A stretch of 52,738 nucleotides of DNA, taken from positions 41,387-94,124 of the forward strand of contig CAZYPW010000005.1 of NCBI GenBank assembly GCA_964649615.1, in the 5' to 3' direction. Shown in pieces: positions 4,955-50,836 of this stretch; position 1 is the stretch's first letter; every line of letters starts with the position of its first letter. The position numbers were made by a program, and so were the translations under genes. The notes under the pieces are model-generated. The model ran no database searches and had not been told where the DNA came from. It saw nothing but the letters and a program-made list of their open reading frames with translations. Origin of the DNA: an uncultured Gammaproteobacteria bacterium (lineage in GTDB: Bacteria > Patescibacteriota > Microgenomatia > Daviesbacterales > UBA10151).

Positions 4955-5369
4955 AATCTCAAATCTGAGATCTTAAATGTCAAATCTACATCTAAAATCT
5001 CAAAACTTCTTCCTCCCTTTTAAAGTTAATACACTTGATCCTAACATATTGCTTATTTCGTTAGCCTCTAAGAGTAATTCCGCACATTCTGTTTTTAAAT
5101 TAGGATAAGAATCTCTCAATAGACAAATCCAATACTTAGTCTCATTAGCAGATTTTAAATCTATTTCATAAAATTTGATGAAATCTTTCCTGCTTGAAGC
5201 TGCTTGAGCTTCTATCATATTTGCTCCAATAGACCAGAAAGCCCTTTTATCAGGTAAATTATTCACAAAACTAATAATCTCTAAAGAAAATCTATAAGCA
5301 CGTAACTTTACATCATTAGATTTTAGATTTGAATTGTAGTTTTGCGTTTTGCGTTTTGAGTTTTGAGAT
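4955..5369 (-). mobile_element. Putative full mini-element: heptamer arms (4955-5008, 5321-5369) enclosing a four-helix-bundle gene
   Basis: Arms match the two halves of ORF-less palindromes at 43363-43465, 48829-48930 and 30366-30474; mobility is inferred. Confidence 0.6.
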
Positions 5370-5374
5370 ATCAT
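5000..5374 (-). CDS. Four helix bundle protein (TIGR02436 / 23S rRNA IVP family), probably internally deleted
   Basis: SIGANMIEAQAASSRKDFIKFYEIDLKSANETKYW family motif; ATG 5374 overlaps the atpA stop (ATGA). Confidence 0.85.
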   Translation of the reverse strand: MISQNSKRKTQNYNSNLKSNDVKLRAYRFSLEIISFVNNLPDKRAFWSIGANMIEAQAASSRKDFIKFYEIDLKSANETKYWICLLRDSYPNLKTECAELLLEANEISNMLGSSVLTLKGRKKF

Positions 5375-6822
5375 GGGCATAATTTGGCCAAGACTGGCTT
5401 GACTCCTTCTAACATTTTAATTAGTTCATCATCAGTATCAACTTTACTGTAAGTTTTAGCAATCTCTATTAGTTGAGGTTCCTCCAAAAAGGCCTTAACT
5501 AGAACTTTTTTGTATTTTTCCATAAACTCTTTGCTTTTATCCTGGAAAAAGGTGGTGAAAGGAAGCGCTAAAAGGGCTACTTGGATGCCTTTGGGGATGG
5601 GGGTGAAGGGTTCTTGTTTTAACACTTCCAAGATCAAATCTCTTCTTTTTAAAATCAGTTGGGTTTCAGGAGATAATTCTGAGGAAAATCTGGCAATGGT
5701 CTCTAAATCTGCTGCAGCAGACAAAACCTGCCTCACTCTTGTTGAGAGCAAATTTGAAACCTGCTCCTGAGTTTGCCTTCCCACCCTGGAAACAGAGAGT
5801 GAAATATCAATAGCTGGGGTTTGGCCTTGGGATCTCATAGAGGCTTTAAACAACAGATGGCCATCTGTCATAGACATGAGATTGGTGGGAATAAAGGTGG
5901 TAAAATCATTTAAATTTAATTCAATCGCAGGCAGGGCAGTGATTGAACCTCCACCAAAAGCTTTTAAAAAATTCCCTGCCCTCTCCAAGAGATGTGCATG
6001 CTGGTAAAAGATGTCTCCAGGGTAAGATTCCCTTCCCGGGGCCTTATTACCAAGCAGGGCAATTTCCCTATAAATTTTAGCATGGGCTCCTAAATCATCT
6101 AAAATCAAAAGGACATCATGGCCTTTTTTTTGAAAATATTCAGCTACTGAAAAAGCTGTTTTAGGAGTTAAAAAAATTAAAGGAGCAGGTTCAGAAGAGG
6201 AGGTAGCTATCACAATAGTGTAATATAGGGCTCCATTAGCAGCCAGCACATCTATTAAATTTCTCACACTCACTGCTGGCTTGCCTATTGAAGCATATAT
6301 ACAAACCACTCCAGTCCCTTTTTGATTAATGATAATGTCAATTAGAAACTGAGTTTTACCAGAGTGGGCATCTCCCATAATCAGCTCCCTTTGCCCCAAT
6401 CCTATGGGAATAATGGTATCAATTACAGTAATGCCAGTTAAAAATTGCTCATGAATATATTCTCTGCTTTCAATTCCAGGCGCACTTCTTTCCAGCTCTA
6501 AAATCTGGACATTTTTGGAGTTGGTTAAAGGTCCTTTGCCATCAATTGGCAGCCCTAGTGGATTAATGCTTCTGGTCAATAGAAATTCACCAACTGGAAT
6601 GCCCAGGCGGTTAGGCAGTCTTTTAAAGGTTTGGCCTGGTTCAATTTTAGCCTCATCAAGCATTAAAACCTCAATAGAAGTTTCAGATAGGGAATTAACC
6701 CAGCCCCGAGCCCCATTATCTGCCTCAACCATGTCGTTAATGCGTACAGTAGGCAGCCCATCTACATGGACCAGGAAATCCCGGACAGATACAGCAAAAC
6801 CAACTTCTTGCCCATTATTCAT
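5371..6822 (-). CDS. atpA: F1 ATPase alpha subunit
   Basis: GQRELIMGDAHSGKT, PGRESYPGDIFYQHAHLLERA, ISLSVSRVG. Confidence 0.95.
   Translation of the reverse strand: MNNGQEVGFAVSVRDFLVHVDGLPTVRINDMVEADNGARGWVNSLSETSIEVLMLDEAKIEPGQTFKRLPNRLGIPVGEFLLTRSINPLGLPIDGKGPLTNSKNVQILELERSAPGIESREYIHEQFLTGITVIDTIIPIGLGQRELIMGDAHSGKTQFLIDIIINQKGTGVVCIYASIGKPAVSVRNLIDVLAANGALYYTIVIATSSSEPAPLIFLTPKTAFSVAEYFQKKGHDVLLILDDLGAHAKIYREIALLGNKAPGRESYPGDIFYQHAHLLERAGNFLKAFGGGSITALPAIELNLNDFTTFIPTNLMSMTDGHLLFKASMRSQGQTPAIDISLSVSRVGRQTQEQVSNLLSTRVRQVLSAAADLETIARFSSELSPETQLILKRRDLILEVLKQEPFTPIPKGIQVALLALPFTTFFQDKSKEFMEKYKKVLVKAFLEEPQLIEIAKTYSKVDTDDELIKMLEGVKPVLAKLCP

Positions 6823-8077: not shown

Positions 8078-8080
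<3 letters not shown>
8005..8080. repeat. Heptamer-repeat palindrome upstream of atpF
   Basis: aagtttaaagtgtaaaatgcaaagtgtaaaat ... aattttgatttttgatttttgattt. Confidence 0.8.
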
Positions 8081-8950
<870 letters not shown>

Positions 8951-9278: not shown

Positions 9279-11819
9279 ATGAAGAAGTATATACCTAACC
9301 AAATTGAGCCTAAATGGCAGAAAAAGTGGAGAGAAGGTGCTCTCTATTTAACCAATTTATCCAAAAATGATAATAAATATTATGTTTTAGTTGAGCTGCC
9401 TTATACTTCGGGGGATCTTCATATGGGGCACTGGTTTACCTTCACCATGGGTGATATCTTGGCTAGATTCAAAAAAAGACAGGGGTTCAATGTGCTTTTC
9501 CCGATCGGATTTGATGCATTTGGCTTGCCAGCAGAGAATGCTGCAATTAAGCAAAACATTCATCCAAGAGACTGGACTTATGGCAATATTGAGCGTATGA
9601 GAACTCAATTTGAAACTTTAGGAGCCTCGATGGATTGGACTAAAACCATGGTGGCTTGTGATCCTAAATACTACAAATGGAATCAATGGATCTTCTTAAA
9701 GATGCTAGAGCAGGGTAGCACTTATAGAGGTAGAGCGCTATCAAACTGGTGTCCTAACTGCCAGACAGTACTGGCCAATGAGAATGTAGAATTAGGCAGA
9801 TGCTGGAGGTGCGGCACAGAGGTAATTACCAAAGAAATAGAACAGTGGTTTTTTAAGATCACAGACTATGCCGAAAAATTACTTTGGCCAGAATCACCAA
9901 AAGTAGATTGGCCCAAGCATTTAAGAGAAGGTCAAAATAATTGGATAGGTAAGTCAGAAGGTGTAATTTATCGTTTCAAAGTAAAAGATATGAATATTTA
10001 CTTTGAAATGTTTGATTCTGTGCCCCAAACATTTATGGCTCAAACGTTTACAGTTATTGCTCCTGAACATCCTAAACTCTACGAGTTAGTAAAAGGCACT
10101 AAATACGAGAAAAAAGTGATGAATTTTGTCGACAAGATCAGAAGAAAGAAAGCTGCTGATAAATTTGAAGCCGATAAGGAAGTGGAAGGCGTATTTACCG
10201 GTAGGTATATAGAATATACTCCAACAGGACAGAATATTCCTTTGTGGGTAGCGTCGTTCGTTATAGCCGAATATGGTACAGGAGTTGTTAATTCCAGTGC
10301 ACACGACGAGCGTGATTTTGCCTTTGCCAAAAAGTATGACTTGCCACTGCATCCGGTTATGTTTCCGTCTGATCCAGTTGAGGCCAAGAAGGTCAGAAAT
10401 TTGGAATATTGTTACCATCATGCACCAGATGGTATCTTGCAAGAACCGGCAGAATTTAAAGGTAGAAAATGGGCAGGAGTAAGAGCAGACATTATTGATT
10501 ATATTGAAAAAAAAGGCTTTGGCAAAAGGGCCATCCAGTATCATCTTCACGATTGGTCAATCTCTAGACAAAGATATTGGGGGACACCCATTCCCATTAT
10601 TTATTGTGATAAGTGTGGGACAGTACCTGTGCCGGAAAAAGATTTACCAGTGGAGCTGCCTTATAAGGTTGACTATGCTCCCCAAGGTAAGCCCCCTCTG
10701 GCTACGGCAGAGGATTGGGTGAATGTAGAGTGCCCTAAGTGTGGTGGGCCAGCCAAAAGAGAAGTGGAAACTATGGATACTTTTGTTGATTCAGCCTGGT
10801 ACTTCTTTAGGTATTTAGATCCTGAAAATGATCAACAGATCTTTGATAAAAAGGTAGTAAAAGATTGGATGCCACTAGAGATCTATATTGGGGGGCCGGA
10901 ACATACCTTGGGACATGCCTTGTATTCCAGATTCTTTACCATGATCTTTCATGATTTAGGACTGATTAATTTTGATGAGTATGCTAAAAAGAGGATACAC
11001 CACGGTACAATTTTAGGTCCTGATGGCTCTAGAATGAGCAAGTCCAGAGGGAATGTGGTTAATCCTGATGAGGAGGTTAAAAATTATGGGGCAGATGCTA
11101 TCAGAGTTTATCTGATGTTTTTAGGCCCTTTTGACATTGTTACTTCTTGGAACCCCAATGGTGTCAATGGTGCCTATCATTTCCTACAACGTGTTTGGTC
11201 TCTCCGTGACAAATTACTTCCGATTGGACGTGGGCTCATCGCCCAAGAAAGTAGTTTGTCACAAGCTGACCTGAAAATGATACACAAGACTATTAAGAAG
11301 GTGACAGAAGATATTGAGGGACTTAAATACAACACAGCTATTGCCTCCCTCATGGAGTGGTTGAATCATTTATCTAAAAAAGAATCTATCAGTAAAGAAG
11401 AATATAAAACATTTTTATTACTACTTGCCCCATTCTCGCCCCATATTACAGAGGAACTGTGGGAAATTGTTAATCGTGAATCGTCTATCGTATATCGGAA
11501 AAATAAAAACGATAAGCAAAGCTTGCGATCTAACGATCTAAAACGACAAACGATAAACGACAAACGAAATTGGTCTATACATAAGCAGTTGTGGCCACAG
11601 TTTGATAAAAAATATCTGGAAGAAGAGGAGATAGTTATCATAGTTCAGATTAATGGTAAGGTGAGAGACAGCATCATGATACAAAAAGATATAATAAATA
11701 ACAAAGAGGATATAGAAAAATTTGCCAAACAAGCTGCAAATGCTAAGAAGTACTTAGCAGGAAAAACTGTGAAAAAAGTTGTGTATGTAGAAGGTAAGGT
11801 AATAAATTTTGTTATTTAG
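9279..11819 (+). CDS. leuS: Leucine--tRNA ligase
   Basis: HMGH and RMSKS motifs, zinc knuckles, editing-domain HDERD; ATG 9279 preferred. Confidence 0.97.
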   Translation: MKKYIPNQIEPKWQKKWREGALYLTNLSKNDNKYYVLVELPYTSGDLHMGHWFTFTMGDILARFKKRQGFNVLFPIGFDAFGLPAENAAIKQNIHPRDWTYGNIERMRTQFETLGASMDWTKTMVACDPKYYKWNQWIFLKMLEQGSTYRGRALSNWCPNCQTVLANENVELGRCWRCGTEVITKEIEQWFFKITDYAEKLLWPESPKVDWPKHLREGQNNWIGKSEGVIYRFKVKDMNIYFEMFDSVPQTFMAQTFTVIAPEHPKLYELVKGTKYEKKVMNFVDKIRRKKAADKFEADKEVEGVFTGRYIEYTPTGQNIPLWVASFVIAEYGTGVVNSSAHDERDFAFAKKYDLPLHPVMFPSDPVEAKKVRNLEYCYHHAPDGILQEPAEFKGRKWAGVRADIIDYIEKKGFGKRAIQYHLHDWSISRQRYWGTPIPIIYCDKCGTVPVPEKDLPVELPYKVDYAPQGKPPLATAEDWVNVECPKCGGPAKREVETMDTFVDSAWYFFRYLDPENDQQIFDKKVVKDWMPLEIYIGGPEHTLGHALYSRFFTMIFHDLGLINFDEYAKKRIHHGTILGPDGSRMSKSRGNVVNPDEEVKNYGADAIRVYLMFLGPFDIVTSWNPNGVNGAYHFLQRVWSLRDKLLPIGRGLIAQESSLSQADLKMIHKTIKKVTEDIEGLKYNTAIASLMEWLNHLSKKESISKEEYKTFLLLLAPFSPHITEELWEIVNRESSIVYRKNKNDKQSLRSNDLKRQTINDKRNWSIHKQLWPQFDKKYLEEEEIVIIVQINGKVRDSIMIQKDIINNKEDIEKFAKQAANAKKYLAGKTVKKVVYVEGKVINFVI
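11471..11568. repeat. In-frame heptamer palindrome inside leuS
   Basis: taatcgtgaatcgtctatcgtatatcgg ... aaacgacaaacgataaacgacaaacga. Confidence 0.85.
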
Positions 11820-12954: not shown

Positions 12955-13467
12955 ATGAAGGCTTATAAAAAGAGTTTAGCTCAATTTGTCCTAATTGTTT
13001 TAGAAAAGAGTATTGATGGCTACGTTAGAGTAGAAGATTTTGCCCAGCATCATTATCGCTATTTTTATGGGGCTCCGGAATTGAAAAAATCAAGTCTGGC
13101 TGCTGCTATTGCTCGTCTAAGAGAAGGAGGTTTAGTGGAAACTAAGCGTAAGAGGTCGGATATTTTAGTAAAGTTAACCAAGCTAGGTAAAGAATCACTC
13201 AATGATTTTAATTTAGATGATCAACCCTGGGATGGTAAATGGAGGATCGTGATATTTGATATTCCTGAAACTCAAAGAACAGTGAGAGATTTGTTTAGAA
13301 GAAGACTCAAAGACTGGGATTTTAAAAATTTTCAACAAAGCGTTTGGATTACCAAAAAAAATGTTACAGAAAAGATGAGGAAACTCATTAATAAGTTGGG
13401 AATATATGATTGGGTAGCTGTAATTGAGTCGGAAGATAAAGCTTTATCCAATATCTACAATCTTTAA
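12955..13467 (+). CDS. PaaX-like regulator (wHTH plus Cas2-like C-terminal domain)
   Basis: WDGKWRIVIFDIPE...FQQSVW motif. Confidence 0.8.
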   Translation: MKAYKKSLAQFVLIVLEKSIDGYVRVEDFAQHHYRYFYGAPELKKSSLAAAIARLREGGLVETKRKRSDILVKLTKLGKESLNDFNLDDQPWDGKWRIVIFDIPETQRTVRDLFRRRLKDWDFKNFQQSVWITKKNVTEKMRKLINKLGIYDWVAVIESEDKALSNIYNL

Positions 13468-13473
13468 ACGGTC

Positions 13474-14466
13474 GTGGAACAAATATATAAATTTAAAGCT
13501 AAATTACCGGTTTTTTTGACTATAATTTTGTATGTTTTATTTTTCTACTTAAGATCAATTCAGGGTGGGTGGGATCTCAAAATGGATATTCTAAAAACTC
13601 AAAGGCAGGCATTAGATAAAAAAATCAGTCAGTTCTTGCCTTCACCCCAGGCTGAACTTTTATCCGGCATTTTGCTCGGACAAAATAAAAATTTGCCTGG
13701 CAAACTTAAATTAGCTTTGAGGGATACATCAACTTTACATATTGTAGTAGCTTCAGGTCAGAACCTAAGCATGGTGGCAGGATTTTTCTTAGGTTTTTCA
13801 GGCTTGATTGGCAGAAGAAAAGCGCTTGTTTTGGGGCTGCTAGCTTGCATATTTTATACTTTGTTATCCGGAATGCAGGTGCCAATACTTAGAGCAGCTA
13901 TTATGTTTGGTTTTGCTTCTATTGCTCAATTTTTCGGCAGAGAAAAAGACGGCTGGTGGGTACTAATTATAACAGCAGCCTTGATGCTTTTAGTTAATCC
14001 TGCATGGATTACCAGTCTGTCTTTTCAGCTGTCATTTTTGGCAACTTTTGGGGTGATAGTAATTTCGCCCATCTTTCTTAGATGGTTTGAAAGAGTACCA
14101 ATTATCGGCCAGGACTTATCAGTTACTCTGGCGGCACAAATAATGGTGACACCTGTAATTGCCCAAAATTTTCATCAGATTTCTTTTGTTTCTTTGGCAG
14201 CCAATGTTTTAATTCTTTGGACTATATCTTTTATCATGATTTTAGGGAGCCTGATGATTTTAGTAGGGACAATCTGGTCGGCAGCAGGATTAGTTGTCGG
14301 AGTAGGGGTAAATATTTTTCTTACTTACTTTATTTATATAGTGCAATTTTTTGCCAATCTGCCTTTTGCCTGGGAATATGTCGAGGAGCAAGCGTGGGCG
14401 GTGTGGATAGGGTACTATATGATAGTAGGTGGGGTATTATTAGGTCTAAGTAAGAATAGAGAATAA
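13474..14466 (+). CDS. comEC: ComEC/Rec2 competence membrane protein; start uncertain
   Basis: LHIVVASGQN, SFQLSFLATFG motifs; many TM helices. Confidence 0.9.
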   Translation: MEQIYKFKAKLPVFLTIILYVLFFYLRSIQGGWDLKMDILKTQRQALDKKISQFLPSPQAELLSGILLGQNKNLPGKLKLALRDTSTLHIVVASGQNLSMVAGFFLGFSGLIGRRKALVLGLLACIFYTLLSGMQVPILRAAIMFGFASIAQFFGREKDGWWVLIITAALMLLVNPAWITSLSFQLSFLATFGVIVISPIFLRWFERVPIIGQDLSVTLAAQIMVTPVIAQNFHQISFVSLAANVLILWTISFIMILGSLMILVGTIWSAAGLVVGVGVNIFLTYFIYIVQFFANLPFAWEYVEEQAWAVWIGYYMIVGGVLLGLSKNRE

Positions 14467-14580
14467 TTTTAAATTTTCAATTTTAAATTCACAATGAATT
14501 TTCAATGATTCAATGTTTGAAAATTAATACATTGATATTTGATTGTAAATTGTAAATTGTAAATTGGTAATTGTAAATTT
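14465..14580. repeat. Heptamer palindrome between comEC and argS
   Basis: aattttcaattttaaattcacaatgaattttcaat ... attgtaaattgtaaattgtaaattggtaattgtaaatt. Confidence 0.8.
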
Positions 14581-17856: not shown

Positions 17857-18102
17857 ATGAAAGATTTACAGTTTAAAGTGTTAATTGAACAAGATGAGGA
17901 CGGATGGTATATTGCAGAGGTGCCCGAGCTTCAGGGATGCTATACTCAAGGTAAAACTCTAGAGGAAGTACGAGAAAGAATTAAAGAAGTAATTAAACTT
18001 GTCCTGGAATCAGATAAAGAGGCCAAAAAGAGTAAGTTATCTTCCCCACAGCCACATTCTAAATTCTTTGCGGTTGAGGACATAAGCCTTCAGTATGCCT
18101 AA
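17857..18102 (+). CDS. hicB: HicB family antitoxin
   Basis: IEQDEDGWYIAEVPELQGCYTQGKTLEEV. Confidence 0.9.
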   Translation: MKDLQFKVLIEQDEDGWYIAEVPELQGCYTQGKTLEEVRERIKEVIKLVLESDKEAKKSKLSSPQPHSKFFAVEDISLQYA

Positions 18103-20517: not shown

Positions 20518-20593
20518 TCAGGGCCTTTCGACTCTATGCTATTCATCGGTCGAAGACCTTGAGTGAGGTCGATTTATCGACCGAATCGAAAGG
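20504..20593. repeat. REP-like GC-rich hairpins
   Basis: gcccttcgataagctcagggc (similar to 29783-29804) followed by cctttcga...tcgaaagg. Confidence 0.65.
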
Positions 20594-20665
20594 TCGGGGT
20601 GCTGGGAATTGAACCCAGTATCTCTGCGACCCGAACGCAGCGTGATACCGATTCACTACACCCCG
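20592..20665 (-). tRNA. tRNA-Pro(CGG)
   Basis: CGGGGTG acceptor, CTGCG-TT-CGG-GT-CGCAG anticodon arm, TTCAATT T-loop. Confidence 0.92.
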
Positions 20666-20710: not shown

Positions 20711-20911
20711 GCCGTTGTAGCTCACCGGATAAGCGGAGCTTGCAAAATTGGCCCTGTAGCTCAGTGGATAGAGCAATCCCGTCCTAAGGGAGAGGTCGTG
20801 AGTTCGACTCTCGCCAGGGCCGCCAATTTTGTAGAGCAACCCGTCCTTCTCCGCCAAAGGCGGAGGGTGTGTTAGGGGTAGGTTGGAGGTTCGATTCCTC
20901 TCAACGGCGCC
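20711..20911 (+). other. Interrupted outer tRNA-like gene (probably Arg-derived) enclosing tRNA-Arg(CCT)
   Basis: GCCGTTG (20711) pairs with CAACGGC (20902); canonical T-arm GGAGG-TTCGATT-CCTCT; the D-loop and anticodon loop both carry insertions. Confidence 0.65.
20750..20825 (+). tRNA. tRNA-Arg(CCT)
   Basis: GGCCCTG/CAGGGCC stem, GGATA D-loop, CCT anticodon, TTCGACT T-loop, encoded CCA. Confidence 0.9.
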
Positions 20912-21605: not shown

Positions 21606-21722
21606 TAGATGGTAGAGAATAGAAAATAGTGGTAGAAGGTAGAAAGTGGAAGTTAGAGATAATCTATCATCCAGCTTCTATCTTCAAAGTACTATCTTCC
21701 ATTTTCCATCATCTATCGTCTA
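21606..21722. repeat. Heptamer palindrome (ATGGTAG/CTATCTT family)
   Basis: atagatggtagagaatagaaaatagtggtagaagg ... ctatcttccattttccatcatctatcgtc. Confidence 0.8.
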
Positions 21723-21736
21723 AAATATTTAAGATT

Positions 21737-22870
21737 ATGTCTAAGCGTTTTCTTATTACCATTATCACTTTAGCAGTTATAGCCTTTTCTGCAGGCATAG
21801 CTATTTTTTTAGCCAAAGGTTACACCTTTTCTCCTACAGAAAAAAGAATTGTGGGTACAGGCATTATTAATATCACTTCTGAACCTGATGCAGCCTCTGT
21901 TTTTATTGATGGGCACCTTACCACAGCCACTAATGCTACAGTTTCTTCACTTTCTCCTAAAAGTTATACAGTCAGGGTGGTAAAAGAGGGTTTTATACCC
22001 TGGGAAAGGTTAGTTGAGGTTAAAGAAGGAGTGGTAACAGCTGTCAAAGTTACTTTATTCCCAGCTATACCCACTATTTATCCTTTAACCTTCAGCGGAG
22101 TTTTAAATCCTTCTTTGTCTCCTGATGGTTCTAAATTGGCTTATATTGTGCCAGCTAACAATAACAATCTAAAAAAGGCTGGAGTTTGGGTTTGGACTAT
22201 GGTCAGAAACCAGCCAATTGCTTTTGCCCGCTCTTCTGAACCACATCAGATTGCCTCAAACACCACTACTGATTTTTCCAAAGCTACTTTGAAATGGTCT
22301 CCAGATTCAAAACAAGTTCTAGCGGTAACGCCAACAGCTACAGTTGATGGTAACAACTATCTGCTGGAATCTGAGAGTATGAATAATGATCCTAGGGACA
22401 TCACCCCAATTTTATCTGCTACTTTAAGTGCTTGGGAAGAAGATATTGAGTCTAAAGAAATGGCCAGGGTAATGACTATAAATGATGATAGATTAAGGAA
22501 AATAGCCTCTGATTCTGCCTCTTTGAGTTGGGCACCAGATGAAACTAAGTTTATGGCTTCATCTTCCGCAGAGGTTAAAGTCTATGATTTAGAAGATAAT
22601 GAGCGAAGCTCCTCTGTGAGTAAAGACTACAAATTGCCTAAAGCTTTAGCCTATATCTGGTTGCCAGATTCACGCCATATAGTTTTAGTTGAGGAGGGAG
22701 CTATTTCTATGGTGGATTTTGATGGGACAAATAAGGCCGTTATTTATGTTGGTAAGTTTGAAGATAGTTTTGTTTTTCCTTGGCCAGATTCATCCAGATT
22801 TGTGATAATAAGCTCATTTCCCACCCCCACTGCATCTGAACCAAACTTGTATGGGATAAACCTACGGTAA
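21737..22870 (+). CDS. PEGA-domain, beta-propeller-like exported protein
   Basis: TM, ITSEPDAASVFIDG PEGA motif, SPDG/WSPD/WAPD repeats; ATG 21737. Confidence 0.8.
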   Translation: MSKRFLITIITLAVIAFSAGIAIFLAKGYTFSPTEKRIVGTGIINITSEPDAASVFIDGHLTTATNATVSSLSPKSYTVRVVKEGFIPWERLVEVKEGVVTAVKVTLFPAIPTIYPLTFSGVLNPSLSPDGSKLAYIVPANNNNLKKAGVWVWTMVRNQPIAFARSSEPHQIASNTTTDFSKATLKWSPDSKQVLAVTPTATVDGNNYLLESESMNNDPRDITPILSATLSAWEEDIESKEMARVMTINDDRLRKIASDSASLSWAPDETKFMASSSAEVKVYDLEDNERSSSVSKDYKLPKALAYIWLPDSRHIVLVEEGAISMVDFDGTNKAVIYVGKFEDSFVFPWPDSSRFVIISSFPTPTASEPNLYGINLR

Positions 22871-22953
22871 GTTAAAAGTTTAAAGTGCAAAGTGTAAAGT
22901 TAGTGTTGTTTTCTTTCAGAAAACTTTTAATTTTTAACTTTGAATTTTGAACT
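22871..22953. repeat. Heptamer palindrome before mreB
   Basis: gttaaaagtttaaagtgcaaagtgtaaagtt ... aacttttaatttttaactttgaattttgaac. Confidence 0.8.
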
Positions 22954-23012
22954 ATTATGATCCATTTAGTGCATCTTGTGACCCAGTTTTCCAGTTGTTA
23001 AAATGTCCAGGT

Positions 23013-24095: not shown

Positions 24096-25316
24096 ATGGT
24101 GATTGGTTTTGATGGATCAAGGGCTTTTATTTCTCAAAAAACAGGCACAGAAAATTATTCCTATCAGCTTTTAAAAGCATTAGCCAAAATTGATAAAGCT
24201 AATCGGTATTTTGTTTACACCAGGCCTTTCATTAGTAGGCCGATCGACCAACTAATGAAATTGCCTAAGAATTTTAAGGTGGTTGAAATTAGGTGGCCAA
24301 GATTTTGGACACAGGGAGGTTTAGCAGTCCAGACCTTCAAGGATAATTTGGATGTTTTGTTTGTTCCTTCACATACTTTGCCTATAATCAGAAGACCGGG
24401 ATTGAAAACTGTTATAACAGTGCATGATTTAGGGTCAGAGTATTTACCCTCCATGCATCAGTTAAAGCAAAGGTTATATTTGGGTTTTATGCAAAAATAT
24501 CAGCTTAATTCAGCCACAAAAATAATTGCTGTATCACAAGCTACCAAACTAGATCTAGTTAAGAGAATTGGGATAGATCCTGGGAAGATAAAAGTGGTGT
24601 ACGAAGGATACGATCAAGGCAATTTCAAAAATCAAAACTCAAAAGTCAAAATTGATGCACAAAGTAGTATTTTGAAATACTATGAACTAATAACTAATAA
24701 CTATTTTCTTTTTGTGGGGACAGTACAGCCAAGGAAGAACCTCGAGCGCGTGATTTCAGCATTTAGTAGGTTTATAGCCCAATCTAAAACTCGAAATGGA
24801 GATAGTATAGAGTATAAAGTATCGAGTATAGAGGGTAAAAAACAGAAAAAAGCAAAACCCCACTATACTCTATACACTATACCTTATACTTTAGTGATTG
24901 CGGGTTCAAAGGGTTGGCTTTCTAATGATATCTACAAACTGCCAAAGAAGTTGGGGATTGAAGATAGGGTGAAGTTTTTAGGGTATGTGCCTGAGAAAGA
25001 TTTACCTGCACTTTACAGTGGAGCCCAAGCTTTAGTTTTCCCCTCTCTTTTTGAAGGATTTGGGTTGCCTATACTTGAGGCTCAAGCCTGTGGATGCCCA
25101 GTGGTTACCTCAAATGTGTCAAGCATGCCTGAAGTAGCTGGAAAAGGGGCAATATATGTGGATCCCTACAGCGTAGATGATATAGTAGATGGTATGGAAA
25201 GGGTAAAGGGTAAAGCGGAAAGGGTAAAGTTAATAAAGGCAGGATATGAGAATATAAAAAGATTTAGTTGGGAAAAGTGTGCAGCTCAAACACTAAAAGT
25301 GTTTGAAGAATTATGA
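24096..25316 (+). CDS. GT4 family glycosyltransferase with repeat-derived inserts
   Basis: GTVQPRKN, EGFGLPILEA. Confidence 0.92.
   Translation: MVIGFDGSRAFISQKTGTENYSYQLLKALAKIDKANRYFVYTRPFISRPIDQLMKLPKNFKVVEIRWPRFWTQGGLAVQTFKDNLDVLFVPSHTLPIIRRPGLKTVITVHDLGSEYLPSMHQLKQRLYLGFMQKYQLNSATKIIAVSQATKLDLVKRIGIDPGKIKVVYEGYDQGNFKNQNSKVKIDAQSSILKYYELITNNYFLFVGTVQPRKNLERVISAFSRFIAQSKTRNGDSIEYKVSSIEGKKQKKAKPHYTLYTIPYTLVIAGSKGWLSNDIYKLPKKLGIEDRVKFLGYVPEKDLPALYSGAQALVFPSLFEGFGLPILEAQACGCPVVTSNVSSMPEVAGKGAIYVDPYSVDDIVDGMERVKGKAERVKLIKAGYENIKRFSWEKCAAQTLKVFEEL
24802..24890. repeat. In-frame heptamer palindrome (TAGAGTA/TATACTC) in the GT4 gene
   Basis: Near-identical to 25725-25804. Confidence 0.9.
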
Positions 25317-26059
25317 AAAAAGAAATTTTAGGAGTTAAAATTGATGATCTTTCAATACCTGAAATTGTCAGTATAGTAGAAGGTTGGTTAAAAAAGGAAG
25401 GTAAGCATTATATTGTTACTCCGAATCCGGAAATTGTGATGATGGCGCAAAAAGATTTGGAGTTAAAAAAGATCTTAAATAATACAGACTTAAGTATTCC
25501 TGATGGAGTGGGTTTAAAATTAGCAAGTGATATAGAAAATATTAGTCCTGGAGTAGATGTTTTGGAGGCCTTAGTAAAATTAGCAGCTGATTTGGGCGCC
25601 ACAGTAGGCTTTTTAGGTGGCAGAGTTGGGGTAGCAGAAAAAGCAGTAGAGCGCTTATTAAAAAAGCATCCAAATTTAAAAGTAACTTTTGCAGGGTCTG
25701 GAGGAGAGGTGGATGAGGAAGGGAATAGTATAGAGTATAGAGTATCAAGTATAAAGGGTAACAAACAAAAAAATAAATCCCACTATACTCTATACACTAT
25801 ACCTGCTACCGATTTACTTTTCGTGGCCTTTGGCCCACCTAAGCAGGAAAAATGGATAGCAAAAAACTTAAAGGAAATAGATGTTAAAGTAGCTATGGGG
25901 GTGGGAGGAGCTTTTGATTACCTATCTGGCAGAGTTAAGCGAGCTCCTAAGCTAATAAGAAGCTTAGGGTTGGAGTGGTTGTTTAGGCTAATCATTCAAC
26001 CATGGAGAATAAAAAGGCAAATAGCTCTTCTTAAATATCTTTATCTTGTGATACACTGA
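25313..26059 (+). CDS. WecB/TagA/CpsF family glycosyltransferase
   Basis: TPNPE, PDGVG, GPPKQE, GVGGAFD, RAPK..LGLEWLFRL. Confidence 0.92.
   Translation: MKKEILGVKIDDLSIPEIVSIVEGWLKKEGKHYIVTPNPEIVMMAQKDLELKKILNNTDLSIPDGVGLKLASDIENISPGVDVLEALVKLAADLGATVGFLGGRVGVAEKAVERLLKKHPNLKVTFAGSGGEVDEEGNSIEYRVSSIKGNKQKNKSHYTLYTIPATDLLFVAFGPPKQEKWIAKNLKEIDVKVAMGVGGAFDYLSGRVKRAPKLIRSLGLEWLFRLIIQPWRIKRQIALLKYLYLVIH
25725..25804. repeat. In-frame heptamer palindrome in the WecB/TagA gene
   Basis: Last 26 nt identical to 24859-24884. Confidence 0.9.
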
Positions 26060-26063
26060 AAGT

Positions 26064-26570
26064 ATGGTTATTACCAAAAAATATCAGGATATCAAACCAG
26101 TTTTAATGGATACAAAAGCTCCTCGGGTAAAGGAGCCTTATTTTGTAATAGATGCAGGCCATCAATCAATTTTTGTATTAGCTTCTGGCCAAAATGGGGT
26201 GGAATATAATAAAACTGAGGGTTTTGTGAGTAGTTATAATGAAGTAGGTACATTTCAGTGCCTTTATGGCCAGGGAGCAATTTTGATGCAGAGAAATGAT
26301 GAAGAAGGAGAGGCCAAAGAGTTTAAAGTCTTAACTTTAAATCCAGGGAGGCAGTTTTTAGTGCCTGCTGGGTGGGCAATGTGTTTAGTTAATATAGGAA
26401 AAAATTTATTGGTAGTTTTAGCAAATTTGGATATTAATTCAAAGTATTTAGATTCAAAACCAATTATAGAAAAAAGGGGGTTAGCTTACTTTGTAGTGGA
26501 GAAAAAAGGTGAAATAGCTTTCGAGCAAAATCTAAACTATACGGTTCATCCTCAAATTACTACAGAGTAA
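26064..26570 (+). CDS. Cupin, archaeal-type glucose-6-phosphate isomerase-like
   Basis: GVEYNKTEG, FQCLYGQG, VPAGWA, EKRGLAYFVVE; metal His residues poorly conserved. Confidence 0.6.
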   Translation: MVITKKYQDIKPVLMDTKAPRVKEPYFVIDAGHQSIFVLASGQNGVEYNKTEGFVSSYNEVGTFQCLYGQGAILMQRNDEEGEAKEFKVLTLNPGRQFLVPAGWAMCLVNIGKNLLVVLANLDINSKYLDSKPIIEKRGLAYFVVEKKGEIAFEQNLNYTVHPQITTE

Positions 26571-26624
26571 GATTTGATTTTTACAACAACGTAATCTAGT
26601 CATATTAGCAGTAAAGTTAACCAG

Positions 26625-26666
26625 GATTTAAACCCTTTAGACGAAGTCGCAAACTTCGCTTAATAC
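26625..26666. repeat. 42-bp dispersed repeat, copy 2
   Basis: gatttaaaccctttagacgaagtcgcaaacttcgcttaatac; compare 9168-9209. Confidence 0.8.
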
Positions 26667-26669
26667 TAA

Positions 26670-26900
26670 TTAGTAAGAGCTTGTTGAGGACTCAGAGGAT
26701 TGGGTTTTTTGTGTTATCCCTAAAAGCCATAACACTGCCTCTTTCTTATATCTTCTATCACCTCTGGAGTTTATTCTAATGGCTGGCAGTTTGCCTCTTT
26801 TGCCCCATCTTTTAATAGTTAAAGGAGAAACTCTTAAAACTTCTGCTACTTCTTTGACTGTTAATAAATCAGGGAGATTTTCTAGTGATAATTTGTTCAT
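26670..26900 (-). CDS. Excisionase/BldC-like small HTH protein
   Basis: LLTVKEVAEVLRVSPLTIKRWGKRGKLPAIRINSRGDRRY. Confidence 0.88.
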   Translation of the reverse strand: MNKLSLENLPDLLTVKEVAEVLRVSPLTIKRWGKRGKLPAIRINSRGDRRYKKEAVLWLLGITQKTQSSESSTSSY

Positions 26901-30476: not shown

Positions 30477-31004
30477 TTATTCACCTCCTTTACTTATTCT
30501 AATTTGATTTAATGCATAGACTAAGTTCCTTAAGTTACCATTTAATACAGAGACCATTCCTTGTAAAGGAGCAACCAAGACGCCCACTGTTTTAGCTCTT
30601 AGTTCATCTTTAGTAGGTAAGGTAGAAAGTTGGATAATTTTGGCTTCATCTAAGGCAATCTCACCCAGGAATCCTGATTTAACTTTGCCAATTGCAGCAT
30701 CTTTAAGTGCTTTAACCAAAATTTTAATAGGGGAGATTTCATCATCATATGCAAAAAGAGTAGCAGTAGGCCCTTCAAGACTGGAAGGTGGAAGATGGAA
30801 GGTGGAAGATGGAACAGCCAGTTTAAGCAGAGTGTTTTTGGTGATGATAAACTGGGCATTTTGTTCTCTTAGCTTCTTTCTTAAATCAGAAAGTTGGGCC
30901 ATGTTTAGACCTTTGTAGTCTGTAAAAACTACAGCAGTAGATTTGCCTAGTTTTTCTTGTATTATTTTTACTAATTCTTCTTTTTGTTGTCTTGTTTTAG
31001 CCAT
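30477..31004 (-). CDS. rplJ: 50S ribosomal protein L10
   Basis: AVVFTDYKGL, KNTLLKLA, LPTKDELRAK; heptamer insert at 30783-30813. Confidence 0.95.
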   Translation of the reverse strand: MAKTRQQKEELVKIIQEKLGKSTAVVFTDYKGLNMAQLSDLRKKLREQNAQFIITKNTLLKLAVPSSTFHLPPSSLEGPTATLFAYDDEISPIKILVKALKDAAIGKVKSGFLGEIALDEAKIIQLSTLPTKDELRAKTVGVLVAPLQGMVSVLNGNLRNLVYALNQIRISKGGE

Positions 31005-42205: not shown

Positions 42206-42508
42206 ATGAATATTGGAAATATTGTCGAGCCAAATAGCAAAGGGCAGGTTGTAATTCCTAAAAAGGTGAGGGATGAGTTGGGCATTTCTGCCAACACAAC
42301 CTTAAATGTGATAGTGAGCGGTGGTGGAATTCATCTTTACCCAGTAAGTGAAGTAGTTACAGAAGAGGAGAAGGATAACAAGCATGATCTTCTTCTGGAA
42401 ATTTTAGAAAGCACCAGGGGGTCATGGGCAGGGGATGATTGGCCCAGAACAGAGAGAAGAAGAAGGAACATAGAACTAAGGGCATCCAGAGAAAGAAAGA
42501 AGTGGTAG
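42206..42508 (+). CDS. vapB: AbrB/MazE-fold antitoxin
   Basis: NSKGQVVIPKKVRDELGI; overlaps the PIN gene. Confidence 0.85.
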   Translation: MNIGNIVEPNSKGQVVIPKKVRDELGISANTTLNVIVSGGGIHLYPVSEVVTEEEKDNKHDLLLEILESTRGSWAGDDWPRTERRRRNIELRASRERKKW

Positions 42509-42885
42509 TCTTAGATACAAATATTATTATTGACCACTTGCGTCAAGAAGATAAACTAACTTACCTGGTGAATTTTAGGCAAAAGTTCTCCAATGAAAAA
42601 TTAGCTATTTCTGTTATCTCTATTCAAGAACTTTATGAAGGACAAAGCAGTAAAGATAAAGAACGCCATAGAAAACTCATTAAAACTATTTCCTCACTGC
42701 GGATATTACCTTATACTTATGAGGTAGCTAAGTTTGCAGGTGAAATCGCAAGAGATACTGGAGCCCAAATCAGTTTGGCAGATGCAGCCATTGCTGCTAC
42801 AGCTATCATCAATGAAGCTCAGCTTCTGACTTTGAATATAAAAGACTTTGAAAAAATTAAGGGTTTAAAATTTGCCTCAGTTTAA
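42502..42885 (+). CDS. vapC: PIN-domain VapC toxin
   Basis: VVLDTNIIID, ELYEG, DAAIAATA, LLTLNIKDF; GTG 42502. Confidence 0.9.
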   Translation: MVVLDTNIIIDHLRQEDKLTYLVNFRQKFSNEKLAISVISIQELYEGQSSKDKERHRKLIKTISSLRILPYTYEVAKFAGEIARDTGAQISLADAAIAATAIINEAQLLTLNIKDFEKIKGLKFASV

Positions 42886-43468: not shown

Positions 43469-44167
43469 TCATATCTTCTGCACTTGCAGAAAATCTAGTT
43501 CCACTGGTGTTTCCCTTCCAAAGATAGATACCAAAACCTTAACTTTGCCTTTTTCCGCGTCTACATTATCAACTTTGCCAATAAATTCTGCAAAAGGCCC
43601 ATCAACAATTTTAACAGTATCTGAAACTGTGAAGACTTGTTTGTAAGTGGGAGCTTCTTCTTTGGTAAATCTGACAATAGTTTGTACTTCTGCTTCAGAA
43701 ATAGGGGTAGGTTTATTGCCAATTCCCACAAAGCTAGTTACTCCCTGGGTAGTTCTAACAGCTAGCCAGGAAGCATCATCCAAGACCATTTTGACTAAAA
43801 TATAGCCTGGGAAGATTTTTTCTTTAATATTTAATTTTTTGCCGCCTTTGATCTCAATTTTATCCTGGGTAGGGACTAAGACATCCAAAATCTTCTCTTC
43901 CAAATGTTCAGATTCAATCCTTTGTTTTAAAGCTGTAGCTACTCTATTTTCATGGCCTGAGTAAGTATGGACTACATACCATCTAGCATTAGGGTTGTCA
44001 TTTTTGACGGTAGAAGATGGAGGATTGATAATAGAATCTTGAAGATCGATGGTAGAGGATGGATTTTCTTGGTCTATCTCTCTATTTTCCATCTTCAAAG
44101 TACTATCTTCCATCTTTCCACCATCTATTTCTATCTGTTCTTCTGTTTTTACTTTATTATCTTCCAT
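43469..44167 (-). CDS. nusG: NusG with repeat-derived N-terminal extension
   Basis: WYVVHTYSGHE, FPGYILV, KOW VKIVDGPF, FGRETPVEL. Confidence 0.96.
   Translation of the reverse strand: MEDNKVKTEEQIEIDGGKMEDSTLKMENREIDQENPSSTIDLQDSIINPPSSTVKNDNPNARWYVVHTYSGHENRVATALKQRIESEHLEEKILDVLVPTQDKIEIKGGKKLNIKEKIFPGYILVKMVLDDASWLAVRTTQGVTSFVGIGNKPTPISEAEVQTIVRFTKEEAPTYKQVFTVSDTVKIVDGPFAEFIGKVDNVDAEKGKVKVLVSIFGRETPVELDFLQVQKI
44006..44135. repeat. In-frame heptamer palindrome in the nusG N-terminus
   Basis: Shares an exact 23-mer (44091-44113) with 21680-21702. Confidence 0.85.
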
Positions 44168-50244: not shown

Positions 50245-50326
50245 ATATATATATTAGGATAGAGGAGTACACATTGTAAAGCTTAACTGTTGACAACTTT
50301 ATATGCGATCGCATACGATTTTGTTT

Positions 50327-50836
50327 ATGATTAGAAAAAAGACAATTGGAAAGTTTGTTCTTTTTGCTTTGGAAAAAGCAATTGATGGGGTTGTTATATT
50401 TGATGACCTAATACATCATCCTAACTGGTATGCTTATGGTGGAGGCTGGGAATACCCTTTAAAGAAATCAGCGCTCTCACAAGCCTTAAAGAGACTAAGA
50501 GAAAAAGGTTATATTGAAAAATCAAACAACAAAGATATTGATAAGATCATCTATAAATTAACAGATCAAGGAAGAGAGCTTATTTTACTTGGAAAGGATG
50601 AAGATGAGATTGAGTGGGATGGTAAATGGAGAATTGTCATATTCGATATTCCTGAAAATAAAAAAGTAGTCAGGGAAGTTTTAAGGGGTAGACTTAAACT
50701 GTGGGGATTCCAGCTTTGGCAGAAGTCTGTTTGGGCATCAAAAAAGAATTTAACCAATAAGCTTAGGGGGTTAATTAAAGAGCTGGGGATAGAGGATTGG
50801 GTATTAGTAATTGAATCTGAGAATGCGGGGCGTTGA
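50327..50836 (+). CDS. PaaX-like regulator, second copy
   Basis: WDGKWRIVIFDIPE...WQKSVW; ATG 50327 fits the promoter. Confidence 0.8.
   Translation: MIRKKTIGKFVLFALEKAIDGVVIFDDLIHHPNWYAYGGGWEYPLKKSALSQALKRLREKGYIEKSNNKDIDKIIYKLTDQGRELILLGKDEDEIEWDGKWRIVIFDIPENKKVVREVLRGRLKLWGFQLWQKSVWASKKNLTNKLRGLIKELGIEDWVLVIESENAGR

Follow-up and report, generated by a model that had tools for sequence, protein, structure and literature searches.

How did one palindrome come to lie, in the same reading frame, within two unrelated and neighboring genes, and is it kept there for the sake of its peptide or of its nucleic acid? Protein-coding palindromes have so far been regarded as an oddity of Rickettsia and of a few organelles; the locus analyzed here places them in an unrelated and uncultivated lineage, the Daviesbacteria of the CPR. 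An earlier note on this DNA had described twin palindromes of ~80 bp, in frame, in adjacent glycosyltransferase genes, and the ORFs and the sequence of the window (i.e., the whole stretch of DNA that was analyzed, 52.7 kb) bear out that description. We think it probable that the two are paralogous copies of one small, non-autonomous hairpin repeat that is read through as protein, that the copy in the downstream gene is old, and that the repeat is under constraint at the level of nucleic acid.

The palindrome and its two host genes

The first host gene (Table 1) encodes a GT4-family glycosyltransferase with Pfam matches to Glycos_transf_1 (1.3e-32) and Glyco_transf_4 (1.9e-14), and its orthologues carry the annotation Candidatus Daviesbacteria. 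The second encodes a WecG/TagA-family glycosyltransferase (Pfam Glyco_tran_WecG, 1.8e-41) that matches the solved TagA structure 7MPK at 3.6e-48. The start of the TagA gene overlaps the GT4 stop codon (ATGA), the two being consecutive, overlapping cistrons. As the earlier note held, the host proteins are unrelated: they belong to different Pfam families. Both ORFs are intact through the elements, and the stretches that span them read GDSIEYKVSSIEGKKQKKAKPHYTLYTIPYT in GT4 and GNSIEYRVSSIKGNKQKNKSHYTLYTIPAT in TagA. Copy 1 is situated in the C-terminal Rossmann domain of GT4, with helix 214-229 on one side and strand 265-269 on the other. Copy 2 lies between strands 123-128 and 166-172 of TagA, where 7MPK has a helix, and its site falls in a gap region when the protein is aligned to that structure. 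In AlphaFold2 models of modest quality (mean pLDDT 62.8 and 71.4), residues 231-260 of GT4 and 141-160 of TagA had pLDDT values <50. As modeled, each copy would occupy a loop that is poorly ordered, joins elements of a Rossmann-type domain, and is highly variable among orthologues in its length and content.

Table 1. Coordinates of the host genes, the coding palindromes, and further heptamer arrays in the window.
Feature	Position	Strand	Remarks
GT4-family glycosyltransferase gene, host of copy 1	24096-25316	+	406 aa; ORF and Pfam
WecG/TagA-family glycosyltransferase gene, host of copy 2	25313-26059	+	248 aa; ORF and Pfam
Copy 1 of the coding palindrome, 87 nt	24804-24890	+	In GT4; encodes SIEYKVSSIEGKKQKKAKPHYTLYTIPYT
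Copy 1, left arm: heptamers AGTATAG AGTATAA AGTATCG AGTATAG	24804-24831	+	TRF period 7
Copy 1, apical stem (AGGGT / ACCC) and A-rich loop AAAAAACAGAAAAAAGCAAA	24832-24860	+	Loop homologous in orthologous TagA copies
Copy 1, right arm: TAC-core heptamers CACTATA CTCTATA CACTATA CCTTATACT	24861-24890	+	
Copy 2 of the coding palindrome, 84 nt	25727-25810	+	In TagA; encodes SIEYRVSSIKGNKQKNKSHYTLYTIPAT
Further period-7 arrays in GT4: TCAAAAN x4, then AACTAAT x2.7	24624-24706	+	Second variable loop (FKNQNSKVKI...ELITNN)
Further period-7 array in GT4: AAAGGGT x4	25195-25222	+	Encodes ERVKGKAERVK
Intergenic heptamer-armed hairpin of the same kind	22869-22957	+	Between PEGA-domain gene and mreB, same gene cluster

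Both copies follow one plan, in which an A-rich loop, closed by an apical stem of GGG(T)/(A)CCC, separates four AGTATNN heptamers on the left from four NNATACT heptamers on the right; TRF reported period 7 in both arms of each copy. The arms are A+T-rich, 28-30 nt long, and inverted to each other along their whole length, i.e., they are terminal inverted repeats. The lengths of 83 and 80 bp given previously became 87 and 84 nt as delimited here, while the difference of one codon, located in the loop, stood. The 26 nt said to be identical were also found as described: CCCACTATACTCTATACACTATACCT (24859-24884 and 25779-25804) is the longest exact string common to both copies. The window contains two exact occurrences of the 23-mer CACTATACTCTATACACTATACC, whereas 100 shuffles yielded none even when 3 mismatches were allowed. 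Folded as DNA, copy 1 reaches -12.3 kcal/mol and copy 2 -11.7 kcal/mol, with z-scores of about -4.1 and -4.2 relative to shuffles; as RNA the values are -27 and -22 kcal/mol. All eight copies that were folded formed a hairpin, at -17 to -30 kcal/mol as RNA. The number of units is four per arm in each of ten copies compared. A search of Rfam at gathering scores found nothing in the window, and a search at E <= 1 found nothing in positions 24500-26100.

Stop codons interrupt the element in five of its six reading frames, and one frame is open. Inside genes, therefore, only this strand and phase can survive, and the common strand and phase of the two copies are no coincidence, which agrees with the selection for frame proposed in the earlier note. 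The tandem four-heptamer arms and the five stop-containing frames had not been remarked upon there. The collapsed repeat that the earlier note had raised as a possible artifact, or a chimeric one, deserves mention, since palindromes of this sort do interrupt assemblies: at the precise position of the GT4 site-3 insert, L121 has an N-gap and the contig of L122 ends. However, independent assemblies from other samples (L034, L035, L116-L120, L038, and L042) hold the same element at the same sites, the window's own two proteins are each on record from more than one contig (2 and 4), and both ORFs stay open through the elements. The chance that the pair is an assembly artifact is, in our judgment, negligible.

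Distribution, common origin, and age of the copies

The indel that the earlier note had predicted in orthologues is present at both sites. In TagA the modal loop is 12 aa (27 of 120 orthologues) and some loops are 1-6 aa, while many GT4 orthologues have loops of 6-9 aa, the site of copy 1 being empty or otherwise filled. The TagA-site element was found in at least eight sequenced orthologues at 56-75% protein identity, orthologous copies being those of L034, L116, L118, L119, L120, L042, and L038. By peptide pattern, the element family or a remnant of it occurs in ~26 of 120 TagA orthologues. Only two of 120 GT4 orthologues, P0001 and P0003, carry the element; one orthologue with the GT4-site copy has 69% protein identity. 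L121, the nearest TagA relative compared as DNA (79% aa identity outside the insert), is without it. A loop of ~30 nt, AGGGTAAAAAACAGAAAAAAGCAAAACCCC, is common to the GT4 copies of the window and L035 and to the TagA copies of L116, L118, L119, and L120. It is more diverged in the TagA copies of L042 and L038, and the TagA copies of the window and L034 have in common a derived 3-nt deletion within it. Since this A-rich loop is non-periodic and shared, itself or as a derivative, and since short-loop orthologues exist at both sites, the two copies have a common origin: the GT4 and TagA elements are copies of one element, as the earlier note had maintained, and not the product of convergence.

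A convergent resemblance would be expected had each array arisen in place, by 7-nt replication slippage together with fold-back or template switching, as a sort of "hairpin microsatellite." In favor of this, a strong, period-specific excess of 7-nt arrays is seen genome-wide, and the window alone has 26 period-7 arrays where shuffles predict 0.4, and none with periods of 6 or 8-12. Some short loop variants also resemble partial arms, and heptanucleotides have been reported as the commonest long SSRs of prokaryotes, with polymerase slippage proposed as their cause (PMC4679880, citing Mrazek 2007). However, a shared non-periodic loop in which 27 of 30 positions are identical, combined with the 26-nt identity, cannot be convergent, and 4 + 4 units in all ten copies are unlike a slippage-prone microsatellite. 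The homology of the loops largely refutes convergence for this pair, and we consider an origin in place very improbable.

The word "recent," which the earlier note had attached to the copying, did not hold up. Since the TagA copy is found among proteins of only 56-75% identity, and the GT4 copy in an orthologue of 69% identity whose flanking third positions are 49% identical, recency is unsupported. The element appears, from these sequence comparisons, to be old, and the 26 identical nt would reflect a generally slow change of this arm rather than recency: the GT4 copy resembles the TagA copies of other genomes (0.80-0.90) no less than its own neighbor (0.88). Under the reading that we favor, the TagA-site copy, present in many Daviesbacteria orthologues, would be the older one. 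The GT4-site copy would be secondary and probably came from the gene 0.9 kb downstream through a rare local copying event and not through a burst of transposition; template switching would be one such event, and ectopic conversion between hairpins another. Such copying would have preceded the divergence of lineages whose GT4 proteins are now 69% identical. Distribution is the one basis for the direction from TagA to GT4, and the GT4 copy could be the youngest or could derive from an unseen third copy. It is the most consensus-like of all copies.

That consensus-like character might also be expected of an active mobile palindrome, similar to MITEs or to the palindromic elements of Rickettsia, that targets these loops. 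Copies at the same site in different lineages would then be independent, fairly young, and drawn from a shared master pool, and the phasing of GTAT/ATAC would reflect recognition by the mobilizing enzyme. The element is patchy among TagA orthologues, and its lack in L121 fits this scenario, as does the presence of many other palindrome families, such as the "SSNEVRSY" and "DLRFKIYDL" families, in the same three or four GT4/TagA loops of scattered orthologues. Two proteins, P0033 and P0117, each hold two copies of another family at two sites. In addition, intergenic heptamer hairpins are unlike each other between syntenic spacers of related genomes, and identity rises sharply within the element only, with no recombination tract around it. 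The divergence of the element tracks that of its flanks weakly (r = 0.42, Mantel p = 0.08), and the similarities of the host genes are mosaic. Considering these two observations along with L121, repeated re-seeding of the same site from a shared pool would also explain why the elements are more similar than their flanks.

Other observations speak against mobility. DNA comparison of filled with short sites gave no consistent target-site duplication, a possible flanking (G/A)AT being unconvincing; since the loop varies in all orthologues, none of them offers a clean empty site, and the target duplications that the earlier note sought from orthologues were not definable. A Pfam scan of the 52 ORFs called in the window revealed no gene for a transposase, RAYT, or recombinase. 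The window holds two copies only, and among 1.84 billion representative proteins (collapsed at 50% identity) a profile search found no other host protein family. Its three matches were rejected as new hosts: they are either a pure tandem of the type (SIEYRVS)n or repeat proteins. A word-indexed peptide search, to which no weight is given, returned one irrelevant match and missed known positives that score 46-58 bits locally by the same profile, a scan of metagenomes for TagA loci yielded only ~8 close relatives, and viral contigs gave a single match and no link to phage. Moreover, the more distant orthologues L042 and L038 hold the more diverged copies, the window and L034 have derived loop changes in common, and repeated hits on exactly the same site would call for unusually precise targeting. 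We regard active mobility as unlikely, although it is the alternative to which we give the most weight.

Conservation of nucleic acid and of peptide

Among ten copies, the GTA/TAC cores are invariant, synonymous codon positions included. Sorted by heptamer phase, entropy vanishes at the G, T, and A positions (0.0) and amounts to 1.2-1.4 bits at NN; sorted by codon phase it is flat, at 0.39-0.77. Identity at the TagA sites is 0.74-0.90 within the element vs. 0.64-0.73 in the flanks, and at third codon positions it is 0.67-0.89 vs. 0.41-0.59; the corresponding third-position values for GT4 are 0.76 and 0.49. In the codon usage of the window, AGT accounts for 16% of Ser codons, ATA for 25% of Ile codons, and GTA for 29% of Val codons. 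The conservation of the DNA exceeds what the peptide would require, and these patterns suggest that nucleic acid, rather than peptide, is the target of selection. The Lys-rich peptide that the element encodes would then be a tolerated passenger.

A functional protein motif, such as a docking segment common to two enzymes of one pathway, would instead be kept by selection on amino acids. The residues S, I, Y, V, S, and I are indeed invariant in eight peptides, and both hosts are cell-envelope glycosyltransferases encoded in one operon. However, synonymous codon choice is just as invariant and follows the 7-nt phase rather than the codon phase, the segment is disordered in the models, and most orthologues do without it. 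A shared peptide function therefore seems extremely unlikely.

The phased GTAT/ATAC cores may be kept because a hairpin or cruciform needs them, or a factor that binds it, or the copying process itself. Covariation at the variable positions is weak (14 compensated cells, where shuffles give 8.6 +/- 2.2). Of these positions, no more than 40-50% form pairs in register, and the arms pair only at their 4-nt cores. Given this partial support for pairing, maintenance of the hairpin alone does not account for the pattern of conservation. Both the route by which the element spread and any function that it has as nucleic acid are matters that we infer.

One such function would be that of a cis-acting signal of the host, in which the phased GUA/UAC (or GTAT/ATAC) arrays serve as binding sites or as a switchable hairpin for transcription of the GT4-TagA operon, for mRNA processing or stability, or for translation, and are kept by purifying selection. 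The invariance of the cores at synonymous positions in ten copies would fit such a signal, as would the retention of the element at the same site in orthologues whose synonymous positions alongside it approach saturation. The two cistrons that contain the copies follow one another in a single operon and overlap, and related hairpins stand between cistrons of essential operons. The proteins HutP and TRAP recognize RNA through phased triplets, and HutP does so with UAG-N4-UAG, i.e., with a 7-nt period. Candidate binders of the element would include cold-shock and S1-domain proteins and two PadR + Cas2-like (PaaX_M) paralogues encoded in the window (12955-13467 and 50303-50836). However, the element is dispensable, many orthologues having either none or an unrelated insert at the site. 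Other hairpins are built from different heptamers, so that no single sequence-specific factor fits all of them, and a match in Rfam is lacking. A dedicated regulatory signal is thus improbable in our estimation, though less so than a peptide motif.

Heptamer-armed hairpins across the genome and known repeats

The GT4/TagA pair is one instance of heptamer-armed hairpins that occur throughout the genome and the lineage, mostly in intercistronic spacers and occasionally in permissive protein loops. The arrays of the window are mostly intercistronic hairpins, found for instance between cistrons of the atp and rplJL operons, and several other ORFs also contain arrays. Their density is 0.25 per kb in related loci and 0.06 per kb in the loci of distant TagA relatives (34-50% identity). 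Different hairpins of the genome use different heptamers, each locus having its own, and the hairpin between the PEGA-domain gene and mreB (Table 1) is missing from the syntenic spacer of L035. An array in the gene for ribosomal protein L10 was considered as a further insertion and ruled out by comparison with L034 and L035. Variation within arrays appeared concentrated in one phase, a pattern that the array detector favors, and it was discarded as evidence.

[quoted passage not shown] As summarized in PMC10969869 (after Ogata et al. 2000, 2002), RPEs are short palindromes lying in frame in unrelated protein genes and translated with the host protein, at places that the fold can accommodate; they belong to a genome that is small and reduced, and comprise several families with intergenic as well as genic copies; 44 insertions are given for R. 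conorii, and elements are dispersed in tens of copies. The elements studied here are 87 and 84 nt long whereas RPEs measure about 100-150 bp, there are two copies in 52.7 kb and in two host genes only, and the phylum is a different one (CPR/Patescibacteria). Furthermore, many palindrome families share the same orthologue loops here, and the nucleotide cores are conserved at synonymous sites. We know of no tandem-heptamer arm structure in RPEs and, given this architecture and the difference in phylum, homology to RPE-1 to RPE-10 is not expected.

Perfect coding palindromes of up to 284 bp are likewise inverted repeats in protein genes that are transcribed and translated, with structure and coding preserved together. 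[quoted passage not shown] The heptanucleotide repeats of bacteria (PMC4679880), which include the STRR of heterocystous cyanobacteria, the long SSRs of Mrazek 2007, and TAACTGA of Beggiatoaceae, Cyanobacteria, and Bacteroidetes, are similar in their 7-nt unit, in a strong and genome-specific excess, in a mostly intergenic location with occasional read-through in ORFs, and in a scattered phylogeny. They are mainly direct arrays of one dominant heptamer, in contrast to the inverted pairs of a locus-specific heptamer around an A-rich loop found here, where the number of units is stable among orthologues (ten copies, with no slippage variation) and where the copies in ORFs lie inside enzyme domains and not at protein ends.

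REP/BIME and MITE sequences (PMC3733652, PMC3184786, PMC10969869) also are small, non-autonomous hairpin repeats that fill the intercistronic spacers of operons. REP/BIME sequences are defined by a G+C-rich stem-loop of 20-40 bp with a GTAG or CGTC tag, outside genes (PMC3733652); our two copies are both intragenic and have neither the tag nor a G+C-rich stem. Unlike MITEs, they come with no target-site duplication that could be found, in a window without a RAYT or transposase gene. PARCELs resemble them as coding sequences with dyad symmetry that apparently move between and within genomes, but their 25-residue domains, arranged in tandem, constitute entire repeat proteins whose function is unknown and are not single loop inserts in housekeeping enzymes.

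The combination of phased 7-nt arms, cores that are invariant at synonymous sites among deeply diverged orthologues, and repeated occupation of the same enzyme loops by unrelated palindrome families has not, to our knowledge, been described before. More speculatively, heptamer-phased hairpins could form a distinct, undescribed class of genome element in CPR and some other phyla, generated and moved by copying in a 7-nt register (e.g., reiterative template switching at hairpins). Their phased 3-4-nt cores (GTAT/ATAC) would be a recognition code for a nucleic-acid-binding factor. Genic copies would then combine an overlapping selected signal with new protein loops, and they would do so time and again at the same places where essential enzymes are permissive, in TagA and GT4 and perhaps also in NusG, LeuRS, and PBP1. 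Taken as a whole, this proposal is tentative and, we think, rather unlikely to be correct in full. If the constraint on nucleic acid is real, essential cell-envelope genes contain overlapping codes, and the long-unexplained excess of heptanucleotides in bacteria would be tied to a concrete structure. Inserts of this kind inflate and diversify CPR proteins, break assemblies, and create spurious "shared peptides" in unrelated proteins by which homology searches and annotation are misled. The AGTATNN-armed architecture was also recognized in many of 33 matches from other genomes, 32 of which lay outside long ORFs.

Twin palindromes in adjoining glycosyltransferase genes

Two palindromic elements lie in this genome stretch (37% G+C), which the names of its closest homologues assign to Candidatus Daviesbacteria (CPR/Patescibacteria, Microgenomates group), copy 1 within a GT4-family and copy 2 within a WecG/TagA-family glycosyltransferase gene. 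The earlier note had described twin palindromes in these adjoining genes, and the description held: both sequences were present, both folded as hairpins well above shuffled controls, and the longest string identical between them was 26 nt (24859-24884 and 25779-25804). A 23-mer from this string occurred exactly twice in the window and was absent from shuffles with three mismatches allowed. We delimited the elements at 87 and 84 nt, not at 83 and 80 nt as first reported, although the difference of one codon stood and was located in the loop. Each arm consists of four tandem 7-nt units, namely AGTATAG, AGTATAA, AGTATCG, and AGTATAG on the left and units with a complementary TAC core on the right. 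Between the arms lie a short apical stem, GGG(T)/(A)CCC, and a loop rich in A. Since only one of the six frames is free of stop codons, an intragenic copy can survive solely in the present orientation and phase. The shared strand and phase reflect a filter and no second coincidence.

Positions of features in the window
Feature	Position	Strand	Remark
Period-7 array	1510-1547		in frame in MerR-like 702-aa ORF
Heptamer hairpins	4955-5004; 5316-5369		border PF05635 ORF
PF05635 ORF	5000-5380	-	between atpG and atpA
ORF without Pfam match	8078-8950	-	
Hairpin	8827-8910		AGTTGGT x3 ... AACTAAT x2.6
Period-7 array	11540-11569		in frame in LeuRS gene; single-phase differences
PadR-type ORFs	12955-13467; 50303-50836		paralogous
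Period-7 array	14464-14489		single-phase differences
HicB-like antitoxin ORF	17857-18102		
tRNA Pro(cgg)	20592-20665	-	
tRNA Arg(cct)	20750-20825	+	
Related copy of NusG palindrome	21675-21702		upstream of PEGA-domain gene
GT4-family glycosyltransferase	24096-25316	+	ORF, Pfam family
Period-7 array	24624-24653		single-phase differences
Element copy 1	24804-24890	+	within GT4 ORF
WecG/TagA-family glycosyltransferase	25313-26059	+	ORF, Pfam family; start overlaps GT4 stop
Element copy 2	25727-25810	+	within WecG/TagA ORF
Period-7 array	30781-30816		in frame in ribosomal protein L10 gene; single-phase differences
PIN-domain ORF	42439-42885		
NusG gene	43469-44167	-	predicted start
NusG palindrome	43995-44167		heptamer-armed
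Period-7 array	46950-46983		in frame in class A PBP gene

The two elements are most likely paralogs, each a copy of one coding palindrome. In-frame palindromes are already known, and the Rickettsia palindromic elements are the closest kind to the pair (PMC10969869). As far as we found in the literature searched, there is no description of heptamer-phased arms, of synonymous-site conservation, or of the same enzyme loops being repeatedly occupied by many families in a CPR lineage.

Age of the copies and constraint on the nucleic acid

We compared DNA for eight copies at the TagA site (the window and loci L034, L116, L118, L119, L120, L042, and L038 from other genomes) and two at the GT4 site (the window and L035). 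All ten carry an AGGG(T)AAAAAACAGAAAAAAGCAAAACCCC loop or one derived from it; they are homologous, and those at the two sites share an origin. Recent copying, as the earlier note had proposed, was not supported: the TagA copy was present in orthologues with protein identities as low as 56%, the GT4 copy was present in an orthologue at 69% identity whose flanking third-codon positions were 49% identical, and the GT4 copy of the window was no closer to its neighbor (identity 0.88) than to the TagA copies of other genomes (0.80-0.90). The TagA copies may stem from one ancient insertion followed by many losses, or they may have been re-seeded at the same site. Re-seeding would agree with L121, the closest TagA relative with DNA, which lacks the element, with the mosaic similarities of the host genes, and with the weak correlation of element and flank divergence (r = 0.42, p = 0.08); however, the derived loop changes common to the window and L034 copies, and the more diverged copies in more distant hosts, argue against it. 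Since the element is known from only two host genes, which lie 0.9 kb apart, and no further host protein family carrying the element peptide was found in the window or by a representative protein profile search, the TagA copy would be the older, and the GT4 copy would have arisen from it in a rare local event. Neither a mobilizing enzyme in the window nor a target duplication was found.

Among the TagA copies, identity was higher in the element than in the rest of the gene, both overall (74-90% vs. 64-73%) and at third-codon positions (67-89% vs. 41-59%), and the raised identity ended at the element edges. In all ten copies, the GTA core of each unit on the left and the TAC core of each unit on the right were invariant; the two or three spacer positions per unit showed 1.1-1.4 bits, so that variation tracked the 7-nt phase, and the three codon phases varied alike. 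Since the invariant cores sit in minority codons of this genome (AGT, 16%; ATA, 25%; GTA, 29%), peptide selection cannot explain the pattern, and the constraint appears to act on the nucleic acid. Considering that the GTAT/ATAC cores always paired in the in-register hairpin and spacer positions paired only about half the time, covarying weakly, what is conserved is the set of phased cores rather than a perfect stem. Core conservation could reflect selection on the element itself in a family that is still mobile, a DNA or RNA signal of the host, or a need of the copying process.

Occupants of the same enzyme loops

When TagA was aligned with the solved structure 7MPK, the insert fell at alignment gaps, in a segment between two core beta-strands. 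AlphaFold2 models of moderate quality gave pLDDT values below 50 for TagA residues 141-160 and GT4 residues 231-260, each stretch being flanked by regular secondary structure. These results are consistent with elements residing in permissive loops. Orthologues ranged from 337 to 461 aa for GT4 and from 219 to 293 aa for TagA, and a few loops accounted for most of this variation. The TagA site held a 12-aa loop in 27 of 120 orthologues, 1-6 aa in a few, and this family or a remnant in ~26; many others carried different palindrome-derived peptides, e.g., 'NVIARSEATKQS...ARNDE' and 'DLRFKIYDL...KSLIVNRKS'. At the GT4 site, this family was confined to the window protein and the orthologue P0003, with short loops or other palindromes elsewhere. 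The check proposed in the earlier note, to define empty sites and target duplications from orthologues, gave short loops at both sites and no target duplication.

Such twins recur, since other families are also doubled within one protein in the orthologues P0033 and P0117. P0033, the GT4 of the genome holding L034, carries the 'SSN(E/K)VRSY(H/L)KN(I/Y)N...SSRM(H/R)SNNN' family twice, at variable sites 1 and 3, and so provides a second case of twin palindromes; the family also occurs in P0068 and P0055. A G+C-rich family encoding '...VIARSEATKQS...LPRPFGARNDE...' occupies the same loops of GT4 and TagA in scattered orthologues (P0007, P0071, P0082, P0117, P0131, P0133, P0140, P0142, P0165, P0180, P0204, and P0215), in some cases twice in a single protein (P0117). 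Its DNA (L036:1683-2420) folds at about -50 kcal/mol, and the family resembles a coding palindrome that is spread widely among CPR genomes. Since the independent assemblies of L121 (a run of N at 700-730) and L122 (contig end at its start) are broken exactly at the GT4 site 3 insert, palindromic elements hinder assembly.

Heptamer hairpins in the window and other genomes

The window contained 26 period-7 arrays, compared with 0.4 in Markov shuffles, and none of period 6 or 8-12. Most were inverted pairs flanking an A-rich loop, and the heptamer was locus-specific (AAAACTC, TTTGACA, AGTTGGT, GATGGTA, and others). Heptamer arrays filled nearly every same-strand intergenic spacer of 60-130 nt, including spacers within the ATP-synthase operon and the rplJ-rplL gap. 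Array density was 0.25 per kb in related Daviesbacteria loci vs. 0.06 per kb around TagA in relatives that are more distant (34-50% identity). When one genome per species was scanned, GTATAGAGTAT-N20-50-ATACTCTATAC matched 33 loci, against ~2 by chance on a rough estimate, from Patescibacteria, Bacteroidota, Omnitrophica, and others, many with tandem-heptamer arms like those of the copies. Since 32 of the 33 lay outside long ORFs and nearly all such spacers of the window are filled, heptamer hairpins are normally intergenic; copies 1 and 2 are exceptions, hairpins that landed in genes. The pair most likely forms part of a population of heptamer-armed hairpins that extends across the lineage and to which the bacterial heptanucleotide repeats are related in form (PMC4679880). 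Intergenic hairpins turn over fast, since syntenic spacers of related genomes differ in hairpin presence and in the heptamer used (22869-22957 vs. L035:1819-1881; 26570-26670 vs. L034:1357-1470 and L035:5430-5601).

Several other features of the window were noted. In NusG, the predicted first 58 ORF codons, ahead of the NGN domain, lie entirely in a large heptamer-armed palindrome with an RNA fold of about -66 kcal/mol, and its related copy is 93% identical over 28 nt. The hairpin at 8827-8910 encodes a hydrophobic N-terminal segment, which may act as a signal sequence or span the membrane; alternatively, translation may begin further downstream. The PF05635 ORF belongs to the 23S rRNA intervening-sequence protein family. 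The two paralogous PadR-type ORFs each have an HTH of this type joined to a PaaX central Cas2-like domain, share a 91-nt stretch at 76% identity, and are possible nucleic-acid-binding candidates. In-frame period-7 arrays also occur in housekeeping genes (LeuRS, class A PBP, the MerR-like 702-aa ORF, and ribosomal protein L10); comparison of the L10 array with L10 of L034 and L035 showed no insertion, the region being a 7-aa repeat that varies in each of the three. In four arrays, unit differences were confined to one phase (e.g., TTCAAAA, ATCAAAA, CTCAAAA, GTCAAAA), a pattern that the detector itself favors.
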